Below, in pieces: positions 1-14,458 of a DNA stretch of 57,438 nt (the stretch's first letter is position 1; the number at the start of each line of letters is the position of its first letter). Source of the DNA: Bacteroidota bacterium. Lineage in GTDB: Bacteria; Bacteroidota; Bacteroidia; AKYH767-A; OLB10. The translations under genes were made by a program, and so were the position numbers. The DNA lies in contig JBJTMY010000265.1 of assembly GCA_046073825.1 (NCBI GenBank), forward strand, positions 1 through 57,438. Direction: 5' to 3'. The notes under the pieces were generated by a model. That model had not been told where the DNA came from. It was given only the letters and a program-made list of their open reading frames with translations, and did not search any database.

Positions 1-1786
1 GTTTGAAGAATTTACAAGTGAAAACTGTGGCCCGTGCGCTGCAACCAATGGACCTTTAAATGCACTACTTAATTCAAATGCCAATGAGGTAGTATCTATC
101 AAATATCAAAATACTATTCCTTCACCTGGACCACTATACAATCATAATCCAACGGATGTAGGTGCCCGAATGACCTATTATTCGAACAGTTACTCTCCGA
201 ATGGTATTCTTGATGGAAACGTTTATAATGACCAACCTGCTTCATTAACCCAAGCAGATATCAGTAATCGTTATGCTGTTACTTCTCCATTTACTGTAGA
301 TATCACACATGCTATTAATGGTACGGATGTAAACGTTACAGCTGTAGTTAAAATGACAGGAAGCGTTTCTACAACTGGTTTATTAGCTCGCTTTGCAATA
401 ATTGAAAGAAATATTTATTTCACTACTGCACCTGGATCAAATGGTGAAAAGCACTTTGAGGGTGTTATGGTAAAAATGTTGCCTGATGCTAACGGTACTG
501 CATTACCATCAACAATGGTTCAAGGGGATTCAGTAGTTTATAACTTCACTTGGACAATGGCAAATGTATATGACCAAAATCAAATTGCGGTTGTTGGTTT
601 TGTACAAGATGATGCAACAAAAGAAGTTCATCAAGCAGGATATAGTCGTACATTAATTCAAAATGATGCTGGAATTACCGCTAATCAATTGACGTATTTA
701 AATTGTGATAGCGTAGTTGCTCCAACTGTTACGGTTTACAATTATGGGGTAGCAGATATTAATTCATTAGATATTCTTTATAAAGTAGATGCTGGTAGCT
801 ATCAAACTTTTAGCTGGACAGGAAACATTCCATCAGGAGGAACTGCTCAAATTACATTACCTGCAATCACCTTAGCCGTTGGTTCGCATACGATAACGAC
901 TGCAACTTCTAACCCGAATGCTTCAACAGATCAAGACACGCATAATGACTCTTACGTGACGCCTGTTTTAATTGCTGCTGCTCCTATTGCAACGCCAATT
1001 ATTCAAGGATTTACAACTGGCGCTTTCCCTCCTGCTGGATGGGCACGTTATAACCCTGATGCAGGATATACTTGGACGCGTGTTGCTTCAGGTGCTGCAG
1101 GAACAAACGGTTCAGCAAAAATTGACTATTACAACTCTGTTGGAGGTCAAATAGACGAATTGTTTTTGCCTCCATTCTCTTTAGTTGGAGCAAACAACGC
1201 ATACCTTACATTCTATGTTGCAAAAGCAAGATATAGTGCTGCCTATAATGATGAATTAGATTTTAACGCAACAACAGATTGTGGAACAACGTGGAGCCAA
1301 CTTTGGGGGAAAACAGATGATTTAGGATTAACCACTAACACTACTGCTCAAACTAATGCATGGACACCAGTAGCTGGATCAACAACAGATTGGAGATTAG
1401 AAACAGTTGATCTTTCCTCTTTATTAGGGCAAAGCGATATCATTGCTAAGTTTACTGCTATCAGTGGATATGGAAACAACGGATACATTGATGATATTAA
1501 TATTACTCAAAATGTTGGTGTTGGTGAAAATGCTGTGAATGAAACAATCAGTATTTATCCTATACCTAGTGCTGGCAATGTTAGCCTAACACTAAATAAT
1601 TTAAAGGCAACTACGTTTACACTATCTGTTACCGATCTTGCAGGAAAAGTAATTTCAAGAACAGAAAATGTTGCTAATAATGGAAATTTATCTGTTGATT
1701 TATCAAGCTATGAAAATGGATCGTATTTAATCAGCATTGAAACTCCTGGTCAAAAAATTATTAAAAAAGTAATTTTAGACAAATAA
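1..1786 (+). CDS. 5'-truncated Omp28-like thioredoxin-fold protein with CARDB/Ig-like domain, jelly-roll (choice-of-anchor J/MAM-like) module and T9SS type A C-terminal domain
   Basis: The frame of ORF 170..1786 is open back to base 2 and reads FEEFTSENCGPC (Omp28-type EEFT..CxxC). Later HFEGVMVKMLP...VVGFVQD...EVHQA matches the Omp28 C-terminal part. It ends IYPIPS...GSYLISI...KKVILDK, a T9SS CTD. The true start lies upstream of the window. Confidence 0.85.
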   Translation, partial: FEEFTSENCGPCAATNGPLNALLNSNANEVVSIKYQNTIPSPGPLYNHNPTDVGARMTYYSNSYSPNGILDGNVYNDQPASLTQADISNRYAVTSPFTVDITHAINGTDVNVTAVVKMTGSVSTTGLLARFAIIERNIYFTTAPGSNGEKHFEGVMVKMLPDANGTALPSTMVQGDSVVYNFTWTMANVYDQNQIAVVGFVQDDATKEVHQAGYSRTLIQNDAGITANQLTYLNCDSVVAPTVTVYNYGVADINSLDILYKVDAGSYQTFSWTGNIPSGGTAQITLPAITLAVGSHTITTATSNPNASTDQDTHNDSYVTPVLIAAAPIATPIIQGFTTGAFPPAGWARYNPDAGYTWTRVASGAAGTNGSAKIDYYNSVGGQIDELFLPPFSLVGANNAYLTFYVAKARYSAAYNDELDFNATTDCGTTWSQLWGKTDDLGLTTNTTAQTNAWTPVAGSTTDWRLETVDLSSLLGQSDIIAKFTAISGYGNNGYIDDINITQNVGVGENAVNETISIYPIPSAGNVSLTLNNLKATTFTLSVTDLAGKVISRTENVANNGNLSVDLSSYENGSYLISIETPGQKIIKKVILDK

Positions 1787-1800
1787 TAACGTTCAATTTG

Positions 1801-1830
1801 GAAAGGCTCAATTGTGTTGGGTCTTTCTTT
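1801..1830 (+). terminator. Intrinsic terminator-like hairpin
   Basis: GAAAGGCTCAA-TTGTG-TTGGGTCTTTC followed by TTT, just after the stop at 1786. Confidence 0.55.
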
Positions 1831-1841
1831 AAACAAGTAAT

Positions 1842-2348
1842 ATGAAAAAAATAATCATTTCAATCGTTGCTATTTTCTTAGGCACCTTCGCTTTCGCTCA
1901 AACTACTTCTTCTATATCAGATGTGGGACATGCCAGTGTTAAAACATTGGAGGGAAAAGAGTTCAATACTTCTTCTATCAGCAATGATGGCAAGCCATTT
2001 ATCATTGATTTTTGGGCTACATGGTGCAAACCATGTGTTGCGGAATTAGACGCTATTAATGAGGAATATGCAGAATGGCAAAAAGAAACCGGAATTAAGG
2101 TATTCGCTGTATCAATTGATGATAGTCGATCAATGAGCCGCGTGGCACCTTATGTTGCAGGAAAAGGTTGGGACTATACTATTTTATTAGACCCTAACGG
2201 TGATTTTAAAAGAGCGATGAATGTTAATTCGGTACCTCATACTTTCCTGTTTGATGGAACTGGAAAATTAGTAGCCCAGCACAATAACTACTCTGCAGGT
2301 GATGAAGACAATTTATTTGAAGAAATTAAAAAACTTTCGGGTAAATAA
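1842..2348 (+). CDS. TlpA/ResA-family thiol-disulfide oxidoreductase with signal peptide
   Basis: Signal peptide MKKIII...AFA; DFWATWCKPC active site; cis-Pro loop SVPHTFLFD. Confidence 0.92.
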   Translation: MKKIIISIVAIFLGTFAFAQTTSSISDVGHASVKTLEGKEFNTSSISNDGKPFIIDFWATWCKPCVAELDAINEEYAEWQKETGIKVFAVSIDDSRSMSRVAPYVAGKGWDYTILLDPNGDFKRAMNVNSVPHTFLFDGTGKLVAQHNNYSAGDEDNLFEEIKKLSGK

Positions 2349-2402
2349 TTCCTAATATTTAAATAAATTCGGGGACTTTACAGATTGTTAGGTTCCCGTT
2401 TT

Positions 2403-2410
2403 TATTTTTG
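2403..2410 (+). promoter_or_regulatory. Bacteroidota sigma-70 -7 element
   Basis: TATTTTTG (TAnnTTTG) 17 nt before the ATG at 2428. Confidence 0.5.
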
Positions 2411-2427
2411 CACTTTAATTAAATAAA

Positions 2428-4068
2428 ATGAATAAGAAATTACGAATTGTTGGCGTTGGGCTACTCTTAGTGCTTTTTTCTTTTAACCACTTGAATGCTC
2501 AGCAGTCACCTACGATGTCTAATTTGTCTGGTAATTTTGAGGTTAACTCTCAGTATTACCGACCAGACAGTGCGATTCTTGCACCCGATGTTCCTGAAAA
2601 ATTATTAAGTAATGGATTCTTTAATCTTAACTACGAATCCGGGAACTTTAAAGCAGGATTACGTTACGAAAGTTATTTAAATGCATTGCAAGGATTTGAC
2701 CCTAACTACCGTGGTAGTGGTATTACTTATCGCTTTGCGCAGTTCACCAAAGATGAAATTACTATTACTGCCGGTAATTTTTATGATCAGTTTGGTAATG
2801 GTTTGATTTTTCGCAGCTATGAAGAACGTGCATTAGGCGTTGATAATGCAATGGATGGATTACATATCAAGTATAATCCCTATAAAGGAGTTATACTAAA
2901 AGGATTTGTTGCTGAGCAACGTAATTTCTTTTCTAAGGGACCTGGAATAGTTCGCGGTTTTGATGGCGACCTTCAACTCAACGAATTATTTGATTCATGG
3001 GCTGACAAAAAACTTCGGCTAGGCATGGGCGGTAGTTTTGTAAGCAAATATCAGAAAGATAATGTACCAACTAGAATACTCCCTGAAAATGTTGGTGCTT
3101 ATGCATTCAGAACGAATATCGGCTATGGCAATTGGCTGATAAATGCAGAATATGCAAACAAAATTAATGATCCTTCCATCGTTAATAATTTCATTTATAA
3201 AAATGGAGAAGCGTTGTTAGTGAATATTAATTATGCGAAGAAAGGTTTTGGTGCTCAGATATCTGGTAAGCGTGTAGACAATATGAATTATCGATCAGAT
3301 AGAGGAGCCACAGGAAATAGTTTATTTATCAATTACCTACCCGCAATCAATAAACAATTAACGTATAGGCTAAGTACACTATATCCTTTTGCAACACAAC
3401 CAAACGGTGAAATGGGCGCAGCGGGTGAAATATATATTTACTGTAAACCAGGAAGCGCTTTAGGAGGAGAACATGGCACTAAATTCAGTTTATCTGCTTC
3501 TGCCGTAAACGATATTAAACGTGGACCTGTAAGTAATGATACATTAGGTTACACTTCTGATTTTTTTGCAATTGGCAACAACCGTTATTACCAAGACGCG
3601 ACTTTTGAGATGAATAAAAAGATTTCTAAGAATGATAAATTAATTCTGACGTATATCTATCAGATATATGATAAGAATGTAATTGAAGGTAAAATTGGTG
3701 AAAAGGAAGTTACAGCACATATTGGTGTAATTGATTATTTGCACAAGTTTGATTCAAAGCATAGCTTAAGAACAGAATTGCAGCATTTGGCAACTGCTGA
3801 AGACAAGAAAAATTGGGCGATGCTTTTACTCGAATACAGCGTTTCTCCGAAATGGATTATCACTGCCTTTGATGAATGGAATTATGGAAATCCTGATCCA
3901 GAACATCGCTTCCATTATTACAATGGGAGTTTGGTATATACTAAAGGACCAACACGCATTGGATTGGGCTATGCTCGTCAGCGTGCAGGATTATTATGTG
4001 TAGGAGGGGTTTGTAGATATGTGCCAGCGAGCAATGGATTTAATGTAACAGTAACAAGCAGATTTTAA
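2428..4068 (+). CDS. Outer-membrane beta-barrel protein, DUF6029-like
   Basis: Signal peptide, amphipathic beta-strand pattern, GNFYDQFGNGLIFRSYEERALGVDNA segment, C-terminal GLLCVGGVCRYVPASNG and terminal Phe (BAM signal). The family name is from recall. Confidence 0.75.
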   Translation: MNKKLRIVGVGLLLVLFSFNHLNAQQSPTMSNLSGNFEVNSQYYRPDSAILAPDVPEKLLSNGFFNLNYESGNFKAGLRYESYLNALQGFDPNYRGSGITYRFAQFTKDEITITAGNFYDQFGNGLIFRSYEERALGVDNAMDGLHIKYNPYKGVILKGFVAEQRNFFSKGPGIVRGFDGDLQLNELFDSWADKKLRLGMGGSFVSKYQKDNVPTRILPENVGAYAFRTNIGYGNWLINAEYANKINDPSIVNNFIYKNGEALLVNINYAKKGFGAQISGKRVDNMNYRSDRGATGNSLFINYLPAINKQLTYRLSTLYPFATQPNGEMGAAGEIYIYCKPGSALGGEHGTKFSLSASAVNDIKRGPVSNDTLGYTSDFFAIGNNRYYQDATFEMNKKISKNDKLILTYIYQIYDKNVIEGKIGEKEVTAHIGVIDYLHKFDSKHSLRTELQHLATAEDKKNWAMLLLEYSVSPKWIITAFDEWNYGNPDPEHRFHYYNGSLVYTKGPTRIGLGYARQRAGLLCVGGVCRYVPASNGFNVTVTSRF

Positions 4069-4072
4069 TACC

Positions 4073-4933
4073 ATGATGAAACATATAAAATTATTTACGC
4101 TTAGCACTTCACTTATTCTAGGGGTTCTTTTCTTTGGATGTGATAAAGTAGAAGGCCCTTATGGAGTAAGTGGAAATGCAACTCCTCCAGATTCAACAGC
4201 TGATACGATTGTTCGAAAAGTTTTATTGGAAGATTTTACCGGTCATACTTGTCAGGCTTGTCCTGCCTCCCACGCCGAAGCAAAAAGATTACAAGATATT
4301 TATGGCGATCAATTAGTAGTGTTAAGTGTACATGCTGGTTTTTTTTCATGGCCACAAAACGCGCCTTTCCAGGATAACTTTCAAACGACAGAAGGAACAG
4401 CTATTGCAACTGATTTTAACTTGATAAACTTATCATTCCCAAAAGGGATGATTAATCGACTATATAAACAATCAAGTGCTGCGCAATATATTTTTGACTG
4501 GCCTGACTGGGAAACTACAATTGATACCATATTACAGCGTCCTGCGGATGCTTGGTTAGCTATTACTAATTCATTTAATACCGCTGATAGCATGATGACG
4601 ACATCGGTGAATGTTAAAATGATTAATAACTATCCAAATCCCGTAAATCTAGCCGTGTATTTTGCAGAAGATAGTATAGTGGCGCCCCAAAAAAATGGGT
4701 CTGTAGATGTTTTAAACTACGTGCATCGTCACATGCTAAGAGGATCCTTTTCTGGCACCTATGGAGAAACGATTGCTAGCGTAGGAATTGCTGGGCAAGA
4801 ATTGAATAGGAACTACAGCTATAAACTAAAACCATCCACTGCAAATGTGAATCAGGTTTATATTTATGCTTTGCTGTTTGATAACGTGACCAAGGAAATA
4901 ATTCAAGTGGAAGAAAAAAAGCTGATTCCATAA
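4073..4933 (+). CDS. Omp28-family outer-membrane lipoprotein (thioredoxin-like CxxC)
   Basis: Lipobox FFGC followed by DKVE; RKVLLEDFTGHTCQACP; YVHRHMLR motif. Confidence 0.88.
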   Translation: MMKHIKLFTLSTSLILGVLFFGCDKVEGPYGVSGNATPPDSTADTIVRKVLLEDFTGHTCQACPASHAEAKRLQDIYGDQLVVLSVHAGFFSWPQNAPFQDNFQTTEGTAIATDFNLINLSFPKGMINRLYKQSSAAQYIFDWPDWETTIDTILQRPADAWLAITNSFNTADSMMTTSVNVKMINNYPNPVNLAVYFAEDSIVAPQKNGSVDVLNYVHRHMLRGSFSGTYGETIASVGIAGQELNRNYSYKLKPSTANVNQVYIYALLFDNVTKEIIQVEEKKLIP

Positions 4934-4951
4934 TTATATAAAATACTAAGT

Positions 4952-4982
4952 AAAGCCTCTTCATTTGAAGGGGCTTTTTTTA
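4952..4982 (+). terminator. Intrinsic terminator
   Basis: AAAGCCTCTTCA-TT-TGAAGGGGCTTT followed by a T run, after the stop at 4933. Confidence 0.8.
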
Positions 4983-5091
4983 TCACTAACAATTACCTGT
5001 TAATTGCTAAACGTTTGTAAACGGATAATCATTTTATGCAGATGTATTTTTGACTCATCAATTTAAATATCCTTTCAAAAAAACAAACAAA

Positions 5092-5547
5092 ATGAAAAAA
5101 CAAATCTTAACACTTGTTATGCTGATAGCAAGCATGAACATGTTGCCAGCTAAGGCTGAAAAGTTGAATCAAGGTACAACTTGTATTCGTCCACCCAAAA
5201 TTCACATTGTTATTGTATTTGGCAAACCCAAGTACGACTGTGAAGTATATCCGGGCATGTGTGTATTTCTATATGGCACATTCGATCGATCAAACCCACT
5301 TTCTGCTGGCACTTATACTTCTTACGAAGACCATGTACTTCAAATAGAAATTCAGAAAAACGAGATGAATGAAGCTTTAAGTAAACAACTTCAAGAACAT
5401 AACATATTTGACTTGGATGAATCCTTTGAAATTCCAGATGACATTAGTAGAGATTTAGGGAGTGAGGAAGGAATAACATTGTTACCTGGTCATTACGAAA
5501 TTCAAGAACTAGAAAATGCATATATATTAACTATTGGTTGTCGTTAA
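5092..5547 (+). CDS. Secreted hypothetical protein with a G-x5-C-x4-GxC motif
   Basis: ATG 5092 gives signal peptide MKKQILTLVMLIASMNMLPAKA; FGKPKYDCEVYPGMC; TATTTTTG at 5045-5052 argues against the longer TTG start. Confidence 0.7.
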   Translation: MKKQILTLVMLIASMNMLPAKAEKLNQGTTCIRPPKIHIVIVFGKPKYDCEVYPGMCVFLYGTFDRSNPLSAGTYTSYEDHVLQIEIQKNEMNEALSKQLQEHNIFDLDESFEIPDDISRDLGSEEGITLLPGHYEIQELENAYILTIGCR

Positions 5548-5643
5548 ATTGCCTTCGAGCCCGTAAGCCCGAATTTTAAAATGCCCCAGGGGGCTGAGCC
5601 CGTAAGCTCTCCCCCTCCCTTTATTGAACATAAAAAAAACAGG

Positions 5644-6246
5644 ATGAAAAACATCTTATTTATCGGACTATTTCTACTAGCTACTAGTTGTACAAAAATT
5701 TTAATACGTGCAAATGGATATAAACCTCCAAGATTTCAATCGGTAGAAAGCATTAATAATTTCGTTAGTCGCCACACTATTGACCGAAAAAAAATAGTGC
5801 TATTGAAAGACTCTTTTGAGTTAAATAAAACACTCCATCTTTTTTCGAATTCTCCGGGAATTATCATAGCTGATTCGAATTTTGCCCGACTACAATTTCA
5901 AAGCAAAAAAGAAAATTGTGCTGCACCCGTCGAAAACTTATTAATGCATTTATGTGAAATTTCTTCGAATGAGGTTTTTCACAAAGACACCAACCTCATT
6001 GCTTTAAGAAAAATAATAGAAAATAATGAAAATTACATTCAGCCATTAAATGCAAGTCACTATGTAATGGTGGTTTGGAATACCTCTATGGGAAAGAATA
6101 TTACTAAGGTTAAAGATTGGGAATCAATCGTGAACAAACAGGCTAATTGCAATGACCAATTCATCTGGATTAATGTCGATTTTAGAGCTTCTTGGTATAA
6201 AGCAAAAGCTGGCAAGCGGATTCATTACAAAGTAGAGCGTAAATAA
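5644..6246 (+). CDS. Hypothetical lipoprotein
   Basis: ATG 5644 gives MKNILFIGLFLLATSC (lipobox). The upstream ORF extension runs through a GC-rich hairpin and is unlikely to be coding. Confidence 0.7.
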   Translation: MKNILFIGLFLLATSCTKILIRANGYKPPRFQSVESINNFVSRHTIDRKKIVLLKDSFELNKTLHLFSNSPGIIIADSNFARLQFQSKKENCAAPVENLLMHLCEISSNEVFHKDTNLIALRKIIENNENYIQPLNASHYVMVVWNTSMGKNITKVKDWESIVNKQANCNDQFIWINVDFRASWYKAKAGKRIHYKVERK

Positions 6247-8002: not shown

Positions 8003-11000
8003 ATGAAAAAACTACTACTTGCAGTATTCTGCTGTATTGGTGCATTAATGCTAACCACACAAGATGCATCAGCAACCCACTTAATGGGAGGTAATATGAC
8101 CTATACTTATTTGGGTCTTAATTCAGGTACTGGATTATATGATTATCGCGTTACATTAAAAATTTATCGTTTATGTGACCCTGGAAGTTCTCAATTACCA
8201 ACGAGTACTTCTATTGGAGCGTATCAAGACAATCCTGGAAACCCTAGTTTAAAACAGCGCGTTGCTGTAGCCACATTAAACTTGATTTCTCAGCAAGCAA
8301 TTGTACCTCCTAACGCTGGGGCTAGCTGTTCTTTTGCACCTAACGTTTGTGTAGAAGAAGGTATCTATCAAACCACTGTTTCCGTTCCAGCAAACACTAC
8401 AGGATATTACTTTATTGCTGACCGTTGTTGTCGTAATAATAATATCGCTAACTTGAGTAACCCAGGTGCAACGGGTGAAGCATATTATGCTTATGCTCCA
8501 GCTCCATCAATTATTAATAACTCTCCGACATTTGCGGTACCACCAGTACCTTTTATTTGTGCAAATGATACAGTAAGTATATTAAATCAAGCGATTGATG
8601 TGGATGGTGATTCATTGAGTTATTCATTCGTCACCCCTTTTTCAGGAATTTCTAGTTCTGGTTCTCCTAGTCCAACAGCTCCCACTACTTATACTTGGCC
8701 TATTCCAACAGTAGCTTACGCTACGAATTTTAGTAACACACAACCTTTCGGTTTGAATAGCTATGCATCAATGAATCCAACCACAGGACTCGGTGTATAT
8801 GTTTCGCCAAACCAAGGGTATTATGTTGTTGCCGTTGAAATCAGTGAATACAGAAATGGTGTGTTAATCGGATTGTCAAGATTAGATATTCAAATTATTG
8901 TTATTAATTGTCCAACAAATCCTGCTCCTACGTTATCTTCCTCTCAAACAACTTATACCATTCAAGAAGGACAAACACTTTGTTTTAATGTTGGTTATTC
9001 CGATCCAAACGGAGATAGTTTGTTCATCACGCATACAGGAGATATTTTTAATTCAACATTAGTAAATCCAACAGCGACACTCGCAAACGCATCAGGTGAT
9101 TCAACAGTTAGTACTCAATTTTGTTGGACAACATCATGTAATCAAGGAAGATCTACTCCTTATCAATTTTCAACTTCAGCTACTGATAATGGATGTCCTG
9201 CAAAAGTGACAAACACTGTTTATACTATTAATGTAATTAACACGCAAAAGCCAACCGTAATGAATGGGCCAGATACGTTGTGTTTGAATGCAGCAACGGG
9301 AATTGCTTATTCTGTTTCATCAACATCTGGTTATACTTATCATTGGATTGTTACGAATGGAACTCAGGTTGCTGGAACTAACACTGCGTCTGCATCTGTA
9401 AACTTTTCCTCTTCAGGATTAGCTACTGTAAGTATTGTTGCGTTAAATCCATTTGGCTGTCCATCTGATACCTTAACAAAAACAGTTTATATTAAACCAC
9501 AGCCTGCAGCTGTTGCAGGAAGTGATGTTTCATTTTGCTCTGGGGGTCAATCTACTTTAGGAACTAGCTCAACCACTGGCTATTCTTATTCATGGTCGCC
9601 AGCAACAAATTTGAGCAGCTCTACTATTTCTAATCCAGTAGTTACGATTAGCAATACAAGTTCTACACCAACTACTACTACTTATATTTTAACCACTACT
9701 TTAAATGGTTGTACTAACAAAGATACTGTTGTAGTAACTGCAAATCCCTACCCAGTTGCTAATGCAGGTAACAACGTATCTATTTGTAGTGGAACAAGTG
9801 CTCCATTAGGAGCCTTATCAACATCAGGTTATAATTATTCGTGGACGCCAACGAATGGATTAAGCAACTCTGCTATTTCTAATCCTGTATTTACATTAAC
9901 CAATACTGGAAATACTCCTGATACATTGCATTATGTGGTTTTGGTTTCTAACAATTTTACATGTAGCGCAACAGATACCGTTCAAATTATTGTTCGACCA
10001 GTTCCTACTGCAGTTGCTGGAATTGATACCAGTTTTTGTTCTGGTGGTAGTGGTACCATTGGTTCTTCTAACACGAGTGGATATACGTACAGCTGGACAC
10101 CATCGAACGGATTAACTTCACCAACTGGTAGTAGCTCTAGTGTTTCTCTTACCAACAGTACAACGGCAAATGATACTGTTAATTATATTCTTACGACTTC
10201 TTGGTATGGTTGTACTGCAAAAGATACTGTTAAAGTTATTGTAAAACCAGTGCCTACTGCAAATGCAGGAAGTAATTTGTACTTATGTTCAGGAGTTAAT
10301 GGACAATTAGGAACTATTTCGACAAGTGGCTATAATTATATATGGACACCTGCAACAGGATTAAGTAATCCGAATGTATCTAACCCTGTTGTGTCATTAA
10401 CTAATAATGGATCCACTACCGATACTGTTTTTTATTACTTAAATACAGACTTAGCGGGTTGTCAAAATAATGATACCGTTCGCGTAGTAGTTGCGCCAAT
10501 TCCAACAGCTAATGCCGGTGTTGATCAAACTTATTGTTCTGGTCAGACAGTTACTATTGGAAGTACAACAACTAGCGGATATTCATATTCATGGACACCT
10601 GTAACAGGTTTATCAACTCCAACAGGAAGTACATCCACTGTAACATTAACTAATACTACGACGGCTAATGATACCGTTAGTTATATTCTAACTACCACAT
10701 GGTTTGGTTGCACAGCTAAAGATACCGTAAAGGTGATTGTTAAACCTGTTCCAACAGCCAATGCAGGTAGCAATTTGTATTTATGTTCAGGAGTTAATGG
10801 ACAATTAGGTACGATTTCTACTAGCGGTTACAATTATTCATGGACACCAAGTACGGGATTAAGTAATCCATCAATTTCAAATCCTGTTGTTTCATTAACT
10901 AACAATGGCGCTACCACTGATACTGTTTTCTATTACTTAAATACTGATCTTGCTGGTTGTCAGAATTACGATACTGTAAGAGTTGTTGTTGGACCTGTAC

Positions 11001-14000
11001 CAACAGCTAATGCTGGAACTAGCCAAACCTATTGCTCAGGACAAAGTGCTACTATTGGAAGTACATCAACAAGTGGTTATACTTATTCTTGGACACCAAG
11101 TACGGGATTAAGTAGTACAACTGTTTCTGACCCAACATCTGCTGCAACTAATTCAGGAAACTCCCCAATAACAATTACCTATTCGGTTATAACAACTTGG
11201 TTCGGTTGTAAAGACACAGCAACAGTAGATGTTACAATCAAGCCTGTACCTGCATCTGTTGCTGGAGTAAATCAATTACTTTGTTCAGGAAGCACTGTCC
11301 AATTAGGAGGAACAACAACTAACGGTTACACCTATACGTGGTCTCCTGGAACTAACTTAAGTGATAGTTTGATTTCTAATCCTACTCTTTCAGACACTAC
11401 CACTGCACTAACCCCAGACACTTTATTTTATTCTGTTACAACAGAATTAAATGGTTGTACCTCTTCTGATACCGTACAAGTAGTTTTAAGTCCTGTACCT
11501 ACTGCGCAAGCAGGTAATGATATTACTTTCTGTTCAGGACAATCTGGCACTATTGGAGATTTATCGATAACCAACTATAATTACTCTTGGTCTCCATCTA
11601 CTGGGATTTCAGGACCAACTCAATCTTCAACTACTGTTACGCTAAATAATAGCACCACTGCTATTGAAACACACAACTATATCTTAACCACCAACTTATT
11701 TGGATGTCTTGACCATGACACTGTTGCTGTAAATGTAAAACCACTTCCTATTTCAGAAGCAGGTACTGCGATTTCTTCTTGCAACGGCGATACGGTTTCC
11801 ATTGGAGCAAATGCAACTAACGGTTACACCTATGTGTGGACACCAAATACGGCATTATCATCTGACACAACATCTACAACTCAAGTTTACATTAGCAATA
11901 CTGGAACTTCGGCATCTACTATTTATTACACAGTTGTAACAACATTAAATGGTTGTACTACTTCTGATAGTGTTGCTGTTACTTCGAATCCACTTCCAAT
12001 TGTTACTACTCAAGCAAATCCATCAGCAATTTGTATTGGACAATCTACCACAGTAAGTGCTTCTGGAGCATCGACCTATAATTGGTATGATATATTATCT
12101 CCTGGGGTTGCTGTAGGAACAGGAAGTGCTTTAACGGTAACACCACAAACAACCACTACTTATTTTGTAGAAGGGACAAGTGCTGCTAATTGCATTAGTT
12201 ACGATACAATTACGATTACCGTTAATCCATTACCAATTGTGCAAATTTTAACTGCATCTACTAATTTATGTTATGGCGATACAATGACATTGACAGGTAG
12301 TGGCGCAACAAATTATTCTTGGACAGAATTAGCAACTGGAAATTCATTGGGTAGTACATCCTCCATTAATGTTGCTCCCACCTCAAATACAAGTTATATA
12401 TTAAATGGAATAGATGGTAATTCATGTGCAAATGCAGATACGATTGATATCACTGTTAATCCTGCTCCAACTGTAAATGGAATTACAGGAACTTTATCCG
12501 TTTGTCCAGGAGCAACAGGTGTTCAATATTGGGTGAACAATCCAAATCCTAGTTCTAGTTACAATTGGATAATTACCAATGGAACTATTGCTTCAGGGCA
12601 AGGTGGGGATACAATCACAATCGACTGGCCTGGAATCCAAACTCCGGCTTTAGTTTCTGTGGTTGAAGTAACGGACAAAGGTTGTCCTTCAGATACAGTT
12701 ATGCTACCGGTTAACATTAATGTTGTTCTTGACCCTCTAGCTCCTACTGGTGCAAATACGTTATGTGCGAATCTTGCTCAAGGAATTTCATATACAACAT
12801 TAAACACTCCTGGATCGGTTTACACATGGCATGCACAAGGTGGTACAATTATCAGTGGTGATGGGACTAATAATGTAGTTGTTGACTGGAACGTTGCGGG
12901 TCCGCAAATAGTAGCATTATGGTACGACGAAAACAGTACAACGATCGATACTGTTTGTGCGGGAGTATCTGACACCTTGTATGTAACTATTAATCCTATT
13001 CCATCTACAAGTGCAATTACAGGAAATAATGCAATTTGTGTTGGCGATTCAGCAACATATAGCGTAATTAATACCACTGGAAGTACATACAGCTGGAATA
13101 TTTCAGGTGGAACATTTAATGGAATATCGACATCCAACTCTACTACTGCTACTATGACAACTGTTCCAAGTGCAGTAGTAAGTGTTCAAGAAACGAATAA
13201 TTATGGTTGTATTGGTACAACAGTAACATACAATGTTACTGTCAATGCACTGCCTAACGCAGATGCAGGTACGACAGCTACCATTTGTTCAGGTACAACA
13301 ACCACATTAAATGCAAGTGGAGGAACATCTTATGCTTGGACGACAAATAGCACATTGGATAATCTTACTATCTCAAATCCTGTGGCATCGCCTACTACTA
13401 CTACAACTTACTATGTTTTAGTTACAGATGCAAATGGATGTAAAAAATCAGATAGCGTTATGGTAGTTGTTAATCAATTACCAAATGTAACTGCTAGCAA
13501 TAGCACAGCAATTTGTATTGGAAGTTCGACAACAATTACCGCTTCTGGAGCGAGTAATTATGTATGGACACCAACAACAGGATTAAGTAGTTCAACAATT
13601 GCTAATCCAGTTGCAAATCCAACAAGCACAACTACCTATTCAGTAGTTGGAACTGATAACAATGGTTGTTCAAACTCGGCAAACACAACAATAACCGTAA
13701 ATCCTTTACCAATAGCTGTCGTTTCAAGTGGAGGAGTTATTTGTAATGGAGGAAGTATAGCCTTAACTGCAAGTGGTGGCTCAACCTACAACTGGAGCCC
13801 TTCAACAGGATTAAATAATGCAACAATTGCGAATCCGATTGCTTCTCCGACTGTTAATACCACCTATACTGTTATTGTAACAGATGCAAATGGATGTACT
13901 GACGATGATCAAGTTACTATCAATGTAAATGATCAGCCAATAGCAGACTTTGCTATTGACAGCGCTGTTACTGTCATTGGTTGCCAGGGAGTAGAAATCA

Positions 14001-14458
14001 CTTTAATTAACAATAGCACTAATTCCTTAAATTATGAATGGAATTTTGGTGATGGCAATACTACAACGGATGCAAACCCTACTCATATTTATGCATTTGG
14101 ATCAACCATCAACATTACACTAATTGCGTATAACAATCAATGTTCGGATACATTAGTAGCACCATTTGGACCTGGCTTATTAGCAGATTATTTCAACAAC
14201 GTACCTAATATCTTCACACCAAATAATGATGGTGTAAATGATTGTTTCAACTTAGGGGCTAACACCAAATTTGAAGATTGTACGTCATGGGAAATATACA
14301 ATCGTTGGGGCACAAAAGTATTTACAAGCAGTTCGGCACAAACATGTTGGAATGGTAAAAAAGATAATACGGGTGAAGATCAACCGGCAGGAACCTATTT
14401 TTACATTCTCAAAGCTGGAAGCAATGAATTTAAAGGTACAGTCTTATTGAACCGATAG
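8003..14458 (+). CDS. Giant Thr/Ser-rich surface adhesin-like protein with Ig/PKD-like repeats and T9SS type B (gliding-motility-associated) C-terminal domain
   Basis: Signal peptide then ATHLMGG N-terminal domain with RCCRN; many ~80-aa repeats (PxAxAG...CSG...YSWxP...GC...DTV); PKD WNFGDG; ends PNIFTPNNDGVND...IYNRWG...GTYFY...LNR. Confidence 0.92.
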   Translation: MKKLLLAVFCCIGALMLTTQDASATHLMGGNMTYTYLGLNSGTGLYDYRVTLKIYRLCDPGSSQLPTSTSIGAYQDNPGNPSLKQRVAVATLNLISQQAIVPPNAGASCSFAPNVCVEEGIYQTTVSVPANTTGYYFIADRCCRNNNIANLSNPGATGEAYYAYAPAPSIINNSPTFAVPPVPFICANDTVSILNQAIDVDGDSLSYSFVTPFSGISSSGSPSPTAPTTYTWPIPTVAYATNFSNTQPFGLNSYASMNPTTGLGVYVSPNQGYYVVAVEISEYRNGVLIGLSRLDIQIIVINCPTNPAPTLSSSQTTYTIQEGQTLCFNVGYSDPNGDSLFITHTGDIFNSTLVNPTATLANASGDSTVSTQFCWTTSCNQGRSTPYQFSTSATDNGCPAKVTNTVYTINVINTQKPTVMNGPDTLCLNAATGIAYSVSSTSGYTYHWIVTNGTQVAGTNTASASVNFSSSGLATVSIVALNPFGCPSDTLTKTVYIKPQPAAVAGSDVSFCSGGQSTLGTSSTTGYSYSWSPATNLSSSTISNPVVTISNTSSTPTTTTYILTTTLNGCTNKDTVVVTANPYPVANAGNNVSICSGTSAPLGALSTSGYNYSWTPTNGLSNSAISNPVFTLTNTGNTPDTLHYVVLVSNNFTCSATDTVQIIVRPVPTAVAGIDTSFCSGGSGTIGSSNTSGYTYSWTPSNGLTSPTGSSSSVSLTNSTTANDTVNYILTTSWYGCTAKDTVKVIVKPVPTANAGSNLYLCSGVNGQLGTISTSGYNYIWTPATGLSNPNVSNPVVSLTNNGSTTDTVFYYLNTDLAGCQNNDTVRVVVAPIPTANAGVDQTYCSGQTVTIGSTTTSGYSYSWTPVTGLSTPTGSTSTVTLTNTTTANDTVSYILTTTWFGCTAKDTVKVIVKPVPTANAGSNLYLCSGVNGQLGTISTSGYNYSWTPSTGLSNPSISNPVVSLTNNGATTDTVFYYLNTDLAGCQNYDTVRVVVGPVPTANAGTSQTYCSGQSATIGSTSTSGYTYSWTPSTGLSSTTVSDPTSAATNSGNSPITITYSVITTWFGCKDTATVDVTIKPVPASVAGVNQLLCSGSTVQLGGTTTNGYTYTWSPGTNLSDSLISNPTLSDTTTALTPDTLFYSVTTELNGCTSSDTVQVVLSPVPTAQAGNDITFCSGQSGTIGDLSITNYNYSWSPSTGISGPTQSSTTVTLNNSTTAIETHNYILTTNLFGCLDHDTVAVNVKPLPISEAGTAISSCNGDTVSIGANATNGYTYVWTPNTALSSDTTSTTQVYISNTGTSASTIYYTVVTTLNGCTTSDSVAVTSNPLPIVTTQANPSAICIGQSTTVSASGASTYNWYDILSPGVAVGTGSALTVTPQTTTTYFVEGTSAANCISYDTITITVNPLPIVQILTASTNLCYGDTMTLTGSGATNYSWTELATGNSLGSTSSINVAPTSNTSYILNGIDGNSCANADTIDITVNPAPTVNGITGTLSVCPGATGVQYWVNNPNPSSSYNWIITNGTIASGQGGDTITIDWPGIQTPALVSVVEVTDKGCPSDTVMLPVNINVVLDPLAPTGANTLCANLAQGISYTTLNTPGSVYTWHAQGGTIISGDGTNNVVVDWNVAGPQIVALWYDENSTTIDTVCAGVSDTLYVTINPIPSTSAITGNNAICVGDSATYSVINTTGSTYSWNISGGTFNGISTSNSTTATMTTVPSAVVSVQETNNYGCIGTTVTYNVTVNALPNADAGTTATICSGTTTTLNASGGTSYAWTTNSTLDNLTISNPVASPTTTTTYYVLVTDANGCKKSDSVMVVVNQLPNVTASNSTAICIGSSTTITASGASNYVWTPTTGLSSSTIANPVANPTSTTTYSVVGTDNNGCSNSANTTITVNPLPIAVVSSGGVICNGGSIALTASGGSTYNWSPSTGLNNATIANPIASPTVNTTYTVIVTDANGCTDDDQVTINVNDQPIADFAIDSAVTVIGCQGVEITLINNSTNSLNYEWNFGDGNTTTDANPTHIYAFGSTINITLIAYNNQCSDTLVAPFGPGLLADYFNNVPNIFTPNNDGVNDCFNLGANTKFEDCTSWEIYNRWGTKVFTSSSAQTCWNGKKDNTGEDQPAGTYFYILKAGSNEFKGTVLLNR
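10000..11000 (+). repeat. Intragenic 498-bp (166-aa) tandem duplication; boundaries approximate
   Basis: TTATGTTCAGGAGTTAATGGACAATTAGG occurs at 10283 and 10781; KDTVKVIVKPVPTANAGSNLYLCSGVNGQLGTISTSGYNY is identical in both copies. Confidence 0.9.

Follow-up and report, generated by a model that had tools for sequence, protein, structure and literature searches.

The first four genes of contig JBJTMY010000265.1 of the Bacteroidota bacterium assembly GCA_046073825.1 (57,438 nucleotides, the whole stretch of DNA analysed, hereinafter the window) are best explained as encoding a Bacteroidota-wide envelope thiol-disulfide module organized around a large outer-membrane β-barrel without a plug. The open reading frame (ORF) listing and translation place these genes, g1 to g4, within positions 1–4933 on the forward strand, where they encode, respectively, an HBP35/Omp28-like thioredoxin-fold protein with a type IX secretion system (T9SS) sorting domain, a TlpA/ResA-like thiol-disulfide oxidoreductase, a barrel of the DUF6029 family, and a lipoprotein of the Omp28 family. 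An earlier reading of the letters alone (the original prediction) had drawn attention to these four consecutive co-oriented genes, each with a cysteine pair (CGPC, WCKPC, CVGGVC, and CQAC) and each with its own sorting signal (T9SS C-terminal domain, signal peptide, terminal Phe, and lipobox followed by D/K/E); all four motifs translate as claimed and the signals are as described. The conservation of the cysteine pairs goes well beyond chance. C524 and C529 of the barrel are kept in 74 of the 74 sequences that cover these columns (80 rows, of which 6 are truncated), the CxxC motif of the g2-type TlpA in 53/53, the lipobox C23 and C60 of the lipoprotein in 61/61 relatives and its C63 in 60/61 (one X), and the CxxC of upstream g1-type proteins in 15/16 (one SxxS). 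The individual parts are of known kinds; what appears to be new, as far as the open-access literature could be searched, is the association of a dedicated periplasmic reductase, an outer-membrane barrel, and surface-sorted thioredoxin-fold proteins. We consider it possible, while stopping short of calling it probable, that this module carries the DsbD–TlpA reducing branch as far as thioredoxin-fold proteins located at the barrel and on the surface of the cell.

The evidence that carries this interpretation comes from the neighbourhoods of the barrel gene, which were surveyed in two sets of loci. The first comprised 79 loci, drawn from the best 80 of 97 confirmed tblastn matches to the barrel (40–90% identity), with neighbours identified using profiles built from the proteins of the window; the second consisted of 49 loci, of which 29 came from the best Pfam matches among 400 sampled genomes and 20 were hand-picked to span weak scores. 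It should be noted that best matches and hand-picked loci do not make a random sample, and the counts given here have to be read with this in mind. In the first set, the Omp28 lipoprotein is encoded directly downstream of the barrel in 60 of the 61 loci with room for it, the sole exception being L076, in which two redoxin-T9SS genes are inserted before the Omp28 lipoprotein gene. TlpA is encoded directly upstream in 55 of 70 loci, 52 of which were found by rule and three (L019, L025, and L076) by inspection, over-long ORF calls having hidden the gene. TlpA also adjoins the barrel in 43 of the 49 loci of the second set, sometimes in divergent orientation. Among the 92 loci whose flanks both reach 1.4 kb or more, TlpA is adjacent in 74, a second CxxC-containing thioredoxin-fold partner in 85, and both in 67. 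Lack of conservation of the cluster had been named beforehand as an outcome that would speak against the original prediction; not one of these 92 loci is without a CxxC thioredoxin-fold neighbour.

The identity of the surface-type partner is more variable than its fold. In seven loci (L123–L129), the downstream partner is an Omp28 protein fused to a T9SS tail, and the loci with the most distant barrels (L130–L133) are without an Omp28 partner. There, Omp28 is replaced by a Redoxin-family lipoprotein (L131–L133), and a Redoxin protein with a T9SS tail is also present (L130–L132), both carrying the motif CPHC; Pfam confirmed both families for the two proteins of L131. TlpA-like domains fused to T9SS tails are also encoded in L040 and L076. 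What is kept beside the barrel is a thioredoxin fold with a CxxC motif and a surface-type sorting signal, not one particular protein family. The partner swaps family and yet retains the fold and the CxxC, which we regard as the strongest argument that the module serves cysteine chemistry rather than a function of the Omp28 β-sandwich.

The components also co-occur across genomes. In a sample of 401 genomes spread evenly across the phylum Bacteroidota, DUF6029 was found in 104, i.e., in about a quarter (103 of 400 complete genomes), and in none of 14 control genomes. The TlpA subfamily linked to the barrel, as recognized with the profile of the g2 family (A3; E up to 1e-25, one match per genome), is encoded in 103 genomes of the sample and Omp28 in 78. 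Barrel and TlpA subfamily are found together in 99 genomes, the barrel alone in 5, TlpA alone in 4, and neither in 293; for barrel and Omp28, the respective numbers are 69, 35, 9, and 288, all of which overstate the statistical weight of the association because related genomes are not independent, so that no p-value was weighed. The four genomes with TlpA alone correspond to the four weakest matches of the subfamily, and the nine matches to Omp28 without a barrel are all weak. Most of the 35 genomes that encode the barrel and not Omp28 belong to the family with CPHC-containing partners. Distance matrices of 37 loci are correlated (the barrel with the lipoprotein at a Pearson r of 0.87 and with TlpA at 0.80), which, with no control for the species phylogeny, shows joint inheritance only and was given no weight.

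The product of g3 matches DUF6029 (PF19494) over positions 8–538 of the 538 positions of the profile with 616 bits (cut-off 27; E = 7.6e-185), is the single copy of this family in its genome, and ends with the residues TSRF. Its AlphaFold2 model (66 alignment rows; predicted local distance difference test score (pLDDT) 92.5) contains 24 long strands starting from residue 31 and has neither a plug nor a periplasmic domain. A short hairpin (residues 521–525 and 528–532) is located between strands 23 and 24, with C524 facing C529 across the G526–G527 turn. Both ends of such outer-membrane barrels lie in the periplasm, and on this usual topology the cysteine hairpin (loop L12) of the model would be expected at the outer face. 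Variable barrel cysteines, likewise named in advance as evidence against the original prediction, were not seen: besides the 74 sequences mentioned above, C-x-x-G-x-C is present in 49/49 barrel tails of a wider set, which includes barrels matching the Pfam profile with E values of only 1e-7 to 1e-13. Conservation along the barrel alignment (A1) is highest in outer loops, with mean identities of 0.82 for L3 (residues 119–141, NFYDQFGNG...), 0.82 for L12, and 0.67 for L7, as compared with 0.60 for the strands and 0.57 for the periplasmic turns; columns conserved in at least 90% of the rows amount to 12 of 23 in L3, 11 of 16 in L12, and 11 of 43 in L7. Conserved outer loops are unusual among outer-membrane proteins, and their presence in the DUF6029 barrels suggests that the working site is in the lumen or on the outer face.

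Structure comparisons place the barrel among large outer-membrane proteins in general. The matches include the 24-strand ushers FimD (Z = 18.2) and PapC (17.3), the 18-strand porins of the OccK type (17.7), and the alginate exporter AlgE (14.7), as well as TonB-dependent transporters and LptD, with template-modelling (TM) scores of 0.3–0.46 and about 10% identity. Naming a specific barrel family for g3 was attempted and abandoned, the matches being generic (Z of 18.2 for an usher against 17.7 for a porin). Searches of the PDB with the barrel yielded no match for the single sequence and one chance match (E = 0.77) for the profile, and a search of the ESM Atlas returned only unnamed Bacteroidota clusters, with OprD and DUF1302 at chance-level scores. 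It has been suggested in print that DUF6029 proteins are polysaccharide export porins, given the HHpred similarity of DUF6029 to Wzi-barrel-like matches near OPX genes (accessible text of PMC9603273), and the presence of AlgE among the structural matches is in keeping with this proposal. However, the barrel has about 24 strands, not 18, and all 92 loci with adequate flanks have a CxxC thioredoxin-fold neighbour. Furthermore, no gene of the OPX, PCP, or glycosyltransferase type was recognized among the inspected unmatched neighbouring ORFs, seven of which were scanned against Pfam, the profile scans not having been aimed at these families. We therefore consider a role in polysaccharide export highly improbable.

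The periplasmic component, g2, matches the Pfam families AhpC-TSA (68.9 bits) and Redoxin (61.8 bits) above their cut-offs, and Thioredoxin is also matched. It remains below the curated NCBIfam cut-offs for ResA (73.1 against 170 bits), DsbE (49 against 123), and TlpA (41.2 against 230). In the PDB, the profile of the g2 family scores 216.8 bits with 2m72 and 79 bits with the best ResA, and by this sequence measure g2 is TlpA-like, a member of a distinct orthologous group whose solved member is 2m72. Its signal peptide looks cleavable, from which the protein looks soluble rather than membrane-anchored. In line with the original prediction, which named DsbD or CcdA as the usual electron source of TlpA/ResA proteins, a DsbD-type reductant is available: the genome encodes one DsbD with DsbD_N, membrane, and thioredoxin domains, and eight Redoxin-type genes in all. 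The reducing direction of the proposed pathway is deduced from the TlpA family and DsbD. In one locus (L086), a DsbD gene directly follows the barrel on the same strand (Table 1), which, being the only such case, is an anecdote and not a rule. The known pathways from DsbD or CcdA to TlpA, ResA, or CcmG resemble the arrangement described here in the Redoxin/AhpC-TSA fold, the W-C-x-P-C motif, and the presence of DsbD in the same genome, but end at periplasmic targets such as apocytochrome c or Sco, whereas g2 is tied to a barrel and surface-sorted partners.

The lipoprotein g4 matches Pfam Omp28 (PF11551) with 64.6 bits (cut-off 34.9) and the NCBIfam Omp28 lipoprotein subfamily NF033782 over positions 7–261 of 264 with 136.2 bits, below the cut-off of 150. 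It contains a lipobox cysteine (FFGC followed by DKVEG) and no T9SS tail. Invariant residues of its family (alignment A2) are the lipobox Cys, C60, C63, H87, P123, which is probably the cis-proline of the thioredoxin fold, E199, Q206, R223, and G231. The thioredoxin-like fold that had been attributed to Omp28 is borne out by the AlphaFold2 model of g4 (51-row alignment; pLDDT 89.9), which shows a β-α-β unit, in which the CxxC opens a helix, and then a β-sandwich. The top Foldseek match of the model is HBP35 (5y1a; E = 6.4e-11, TM score 0.60 over 267 columns), followed by the thioredoxin-like Agrobacterium protein 2axo and the Omp28 domain 2r2c, the latter matching the sandwich only, with C-terminal domains of DipZ lower in the list; at the sequence level, g4 matches the Omp28 crystal structure 2r2c with E = 1.8e-10. 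The T9SS sorting domain of g1 is recognized by PF18962 (48.9 bits, cut-off 27) and TIGR04183 (42 bits), and the remainder of the protein scores 34.0 bits with Pfam Omp28, just below the cut-off of 34.9. Residues 1–217 of g1 nevertheless align with the g4 family over both domains, with the CxxC motifs superposed (hhalign probability 96.4, E = 1e-9); therefore, g1 and g4 are paralogues, one exported by the T9SS and the other lipidated. A PDB search with the single sequence of g1 matched only the sorting domain and gave no sequence-level match to HBP35. The originally proposed families thus stand, with g3 matching DUF6029, g4 Omp28, and g2 Redoxin/AhpC-TSA above the thresholds; the scores of g1 with Omp28 and of g2 with the curated TlpA, ResA, and DsbE models lie below them. 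Three further Omp28-domain proteins are encoded elsewhere in the same genome (Table 1). Both g1 and g4 weakly match an NCBIfam model named 'Omp28-related selenoprotein', which speaks for a redox role, selenocysteine being a mark of redox-active sites. In four Omp28 matches near barrels, in-frame TGA codons were considered as selenocysteine codons and rejected, since they either end a gene or lie upstream.

Among solved structures, HBP35 of Porphyromonas gingivalis (PG0616, 5y1a) is the nearest relative of g4, and it combines features of two components of the module. Like g4, it consists of a thioredoxin-like CxxC domain followed by a β-sandwich; with g1, it shares a T9SS C-terminal domain and surface display. 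HBP35 differs from g4 in that the latter is a lipoprotein without a T9SS tail, and has been studied alone, with no barrel or dedicated TlpA tied to it. According to the accessible text of PMC2907840, recombinant HBP35 has thioredoxin activity that is lost on mutating its two cysteines, a modified form of the protein is found at the surface of the cell, and the role of such surface thioredoxin-like proteins is called unknown. The same text reports that HBP35 binds haemin via its non-thioredoxin part and is required for growth when haemin is scarce, which brings into play a different view of the module: barrel and lipoprotein could form a TonB-independent channel and receptor for a nutrient such as haem or a metal, with the thioredoxin-like proteins capturing and releasing the ligand, TlpA merely keeping the cysteines right during periplasmic transit, and the barrel pair forming a structural disulfide. 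The β-sandwich of g4 does contain conserved polar residues (the invariant E199, Q206, and R223, plus Y216 and H218 with at least 90% conservation across the rows), and the size of the barrel, its lack of a plug, and its conserved inward or outer loops would suit a channel; moreover, a disulfide at the tip of a hairpin is a common structural device. However, the replacements in the distant clade keep the thioredoxin fold and the CxxC, not the β-sandwich, which rules out ligand binding by the sandwich as the conserved function. To keep a dedicated reductase, which accompanies the barrel in 99 of the 108 genomes holding either, would also be a heavy investment for mere maturation, and neither a TonB box nor a plug nor an inner-membrane transporter linked to the locus was found among the ORFs of the window and the related loci inspected. 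On balance, nutrient uptake as the function of the module seems unlikely to us.

A fifth component is associated with the module in part of the loci. Upstream of g1, on the adjoining contig C216, a 236-residue protein with a T9SS tail is encoded divergently from the operon, and homologues of its N-terminal domain are found beside the module in 39 of 128 loci (19 of the 57 with flanks of 3 kb or more) on either strand. Its cysteine pair (C-x4-C; C75 and C80 in the genome under study) is invariant in 36/36 sequences. The sorting domain PF18962 is present in 28/28 members, and a profile of these 28 proteins (A4) matches a single PDB entry outside the sorting domains, the N-domain of PorA (6kjk), albeit weakly (E = 0.0023, 20.5 bits); a Pfam scan of the same 28 proteins with E values up to 1 detected no recurrent N-domain family and no DsbD_N. 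PorA (PGN_0123/PG2172) of P. gingivalis is described, in the accessible parts of PMC7712824 and PMC12152298, as a 246-residue immunoglobulin-like protein with Cys92 and Cys96. In that bacterium, consecutive locus tags, as far as available sources list them, denote PorA (PG2172), Omp28 (PG2173), an uncharacterized protein found in vesicles (PG2174), and a thioredoxin-domain protein (PG2175). The two loci are connected by the matches of g4 to the Omp28 structure 2r2c and of the upstream T9SS protein to the PorA N-domain 6kjk. They differ in that, in the genome studied here, the PorA-like gene is divergent and an extra HBP35-like gene, g1, heads the operon. Only PorA, in T9SS regulation, and Omp28, as an antigen called an adhesin, have been studied in P. 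gingivalis, never as a module, and in the open-access text that was searchable the tags PG2173–PG2175 and PGN_0124–0126 appear only in proteome tables.

The PorA connection is also the basis for considering that the barrel, which is of usher size, serves to carry across the outer membrane, or to anchor in it, the Cys-pair proteins of the module (the PorA-like protein and the Omp28 lipoprotein), with TlpA keeping the cargo reduced for transit and the cysteine pair of the outer loop aiding oxidation or latching outside. PorA of P. gingivalis reaches the surface in mutants without T9SS translocon parts by a route left unexplained in the available text of PMC7712824, and such an export or assembly function would be compatible with the consecutive tags PG2172–PG2175, with the PorA-like gene and its invariant cysteine pair beside the module in 39/128 loci, and with the FimD and PapC ushers being the closest fold neighbours of the barrel (Z = 18.2). 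Against this, the match to ushers is no better than that to the 18-strand porins (Z = 17.7), in roughly two of every three loci no PorA-like gene was detected within 4 kb, and most partners carry their own T9SS tail or lipobox and hence already have an export route. In addition, the four cysteines of PorA are dispensable for its signalling role, as reported in the accessible portion of PMC12152298. Taken together, we rate this alternative as slightly less likely still than nutrient uptake.

Returning to the reducing branch, the pathway that we favour would start with cytoplasmic thioredoxin, from which electrons would pass to the three-domain DsbD of the inner membrane. DsbD would reduce g2, the dedicated soluble TlpA-like protein of the periplasm, which in turn would reduce the thioredoxin-fold Omp28 lipoprotein g4, working at or in the barrel g3. 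Thiol-disulfide exchange would then reach surface-displayed proteins, namely, the HBP35-like T9SS cargo g1 and perhaps the PorA-like neighbour, with the conserved outer-face loops of the barrel, including the Cys-x4-Cys hairpin, as a docking or exchange site. HBP35 suggests, by analogy, that surface disulfides or a nutrient (haem or a metal, for instance) may be the final substrate. Large barrels are known to be occupied, LptD by LptE, ushers by a plug, and MtrB by MtrA. Compared with LptD–LptE and the FimD and PapC ushers, barrels of 24–26 strands with a lumen filled by a partner lipoprotein or plug, g3 is without a plug domain and without periplasmic domains. By the same analogy, a 24-strand plugless barrel would need a filler, and the lipoprotein or TlpA could be lodged in its lumen. 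A prediction of the complex of barrel residues 28–546 (A1) and lipoprotein residues 23–286 (A2) scored 0.00 twice against a mark of 0.32 and, run without controls, has no bearing either way. In the N-terminal domain of DsbD, a cysteine pair on a hairpin trades disulfides with thioredoxin-fold partners. The most far-reaching version of the proposed pathway, which we find rather doubtful, is a redox link that crosses the outer membrane by way of cysteines, without haem, i.e., a thiol counterpart of MtrCAB: electrons from DsbD would reach, through TlpA, a thioredoxin-fold lipoprotein housed in the plugless barrel, and the outer-loop Cys-x4-Cys would act like the hairpin pair of the DsbD N-terminal domain, handing electrons to surface-anchored thioredoxin-fold proteins. 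What is shared with MtrCAB is the layout only, with a large barrel between a redox protein in the periplasm and an outer-face redox lipoprotein; MtrCAB works through haem, whereas none of the four CxxC or Cx4C motifs described here is followed by the His of a haem site (no CxxCH).

Several observations weigh against the extension of the reducing branch to the surface, in addition to the choice of loci and the relatedness of genomes noted above. The original prediction had electrons passing from the periplasm through the cysteines of the barrel to the surface. The model does not support this part: the pair appears to lie on an outer hairpin and, if so, alone cannot bridge periplasm and surface. 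With the pair seemingly outside the cell, something must span the lumen, and membrane crossing is thus the weak point of the proposal. The four genes had also been viewed as a unit, which holds for the barrel with TlpA and the thioredoxin-fold partners and less so for the full set. TlpA is not adjacent to the barrel in 18 of the 92 loci (in two of which one is encoded within 4 kb; in six sampled genomes without a barrel-adjacent TlpA, the orthologue is encoded elsewhere in all six, with 240–257 bits), the surface-type partner is not adjacent in 7/92, and a g1-type gene, apparently an accessory, lies upstream in only 15 of 54 loci of the first set. No U-x-x-C or C-x-x-U was found inside the Omp28 or TlpA domains of the fetched loci (window duplicates excluded). 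One of the additional Omp28-domain lipoproteins of the genome is without a CxxC. The surface-export signal ascribed to the lipoprotein is borne out in part. The residues from the lipid cysteine onwards are C-D-K-V-E-G in g4 and C-D-K-I-E-x-P-Y in the conserved family consensus; as compared with the published lipoprotein export signal of Bacteroidota, C-X-K-(D/E)2-X, K at +3 fits, whereas +4 is hydrophobic and an acidic residue is found at +5 only. According to the accessible text of the source of this signal (PMC5080379), K plus a single acidic residue is insufficient for surface export. With only one acidic residue in place of (D/E)2, g4 may therefore face the periplasm. Finally, we infer, rather than observe, each electron-transfer step, the reducing direction, the contacts between the parts, the surface exposure of g4, and the outer-face position of the cysteine pair of the barrel.

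At the level of the locus, g1–g4 are read as one operon. The intergenic gaps between g1 and g2, g2 and g3, and g3 and g4 measure 55, 79, and 4 bases, respectively, and a terminator-like hairpin directly follows g4 (Table 1). A scan for hairpins found 5 sites against 3.9 expected, so that only the position and strength of this site count. A scan for σ70 promoters, with a consensus not meant for Bacteroidota promoters, remained at chance level (24 seen against 24.3 expected). The window corresponds to contig C265 of the 266-contig assembly, and its first 141 bases are identical to the last 141 bases of contig C216, which resembles an assembly k-mer overlap. On C216, the frame of g1 begins 78 bases further upstream with the signal peptide MRKIYSLFTCLLFSGAVFSQ... 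(begins MRKIYS). Because close relatives (L006–L012) keep the gene order across the junction, contigs C216 and C265 almost certainly abut.

SprA, the T9SS translocon, is encoded on C216, with two further ORFs between it and the module. Beyond the terminator, the window contains two small ORFs, for a secreted protein and a likely lipoprotein, with several cysteines each and without a convincing family match (one weak Pfam match below the cut-off); their homologues follow the module in close relatives only (9 and 6 ORF matches). Farther downstream lies a gene for a large protein with many repeated units. In L090, a rhodanese-domain gene follows the barrel, and possibly one does so in L091 as well, which we treat as coincidence.

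Table 1 Coordinates of the module, its surroundings, and related genes. Positions without a prefix are those of the window; the others are given within the locus named.
Feature	Position	Strand	Description
g1	2..1786	+	HBP35/Omp28-like thioredoxin-fold protein with T9SS type A sorting domain; 5′ end cut by window edge
CGPC motif of g1	26..37	+	From translation
T9SS C-terminal sorting domain of g1	1553..1774	+	Residues 518–591; PF18962 and TIGR04183 matches
g2	1842..2348	+	TlpA/ResA-like thiol-disulfide oxidoreductase of the barrel-linked subfamily, predicted soluble and periplasmic
WCKPC motif of g2	2022..2036	+	Active-site motif, from translation
g3	2428..4068	+	DUF6029 outer-membrane β-barrel, about 24 strands in the model, without N-terminal plug
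CVGGVC of g3	3997..4014	+	Cys pair around GG turn, last hairpin (loop L12); from translation
g4	4073..4933	+	Omp28-family lipoprotein: thioredoxin-like domain with CxxC and β-sandwich
Lipobox cysteine of g4	4139..4141	+	FFG-C-DKVEG; from translation
CQAC motif of g4	4250..4261	+	C60 and C63; from translation
Terminator-like hairpin	4952..4977	+	Closes the operon directly 3′ of g4; 11-bp stem, 5 G-C pairs, T-run
Small ORF	5050..5547	+	After terminator
Small ORF	5581..6246	+	After terminator
Large repeat protein	8003..14458	+	2151 residues; many repeated immunoglobulin/PKD-like units; CHU_C (type B) T9SS sorting domain
Overlap with window 1–141	L003:12036-12176		End of contig C216
Start of g1 on C216	L003:11959		
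PorA-like protein	L003:11087-11797	-	Contig C216, upstream of g1; 236 residues, T9SS tail
SprA	L003:609-7841	-	Contig C216; T9SS translocon, 2410 residues; PF14349, 677 bits
Omp28-domain lipoprotein	L138:2873-3805	-	Contig C32, same genome; without CxxC
Omp28-domain T9SS cargo	L139:1833-3887	+	Contig C128, same genome; 684 residues, CGWC
Omp28-domain lipoprotein	L140:2790-3617	-	Contig C49, same genome; CPPC
DsbD gene	L086:1-1468	-	DsbD_N and DsbD_TM; directly after barrel
Rhodanese-domain gene	L090:3265-4338	+	After barrel; possibly tRNA selenouridine synthase type
ORF, possibly likewise rhodanese	L091:3247-4440	+	After barrel

No paper describing the module was found in the open-access literature, as far as its text could be searched; papers that mention both Omp28 and thioredoxin do not appear to treat a module, those with Omp28 and TlpA are unrelated, and none was found on Omp28 and a selenoprotein. 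Through the module, surface thioredoxin-like proteins are connected to a large barrel and to a dedicated reductase of the periplasm, and a testable function would be given to three widespread proteins, DUF6029, Omp28, and the 2m72-type thioredoxin. Judging by locus tags and structure matches, it would also be located beside porA in the gum pathogen P. gingivalis. We know of no pathway in Gram-negative bacteria through which proteins at the external side of the outer membrane receive reducing power, and a true thiol relay across this membrane would be categorically new. Should the module prove to be only a transporter, it would represent a new kind of outer-membrane channel; should the thiol link be real, it could allow the thiols on the surface of Bacteroidota to stay reduced in host tissue or in oxic water.

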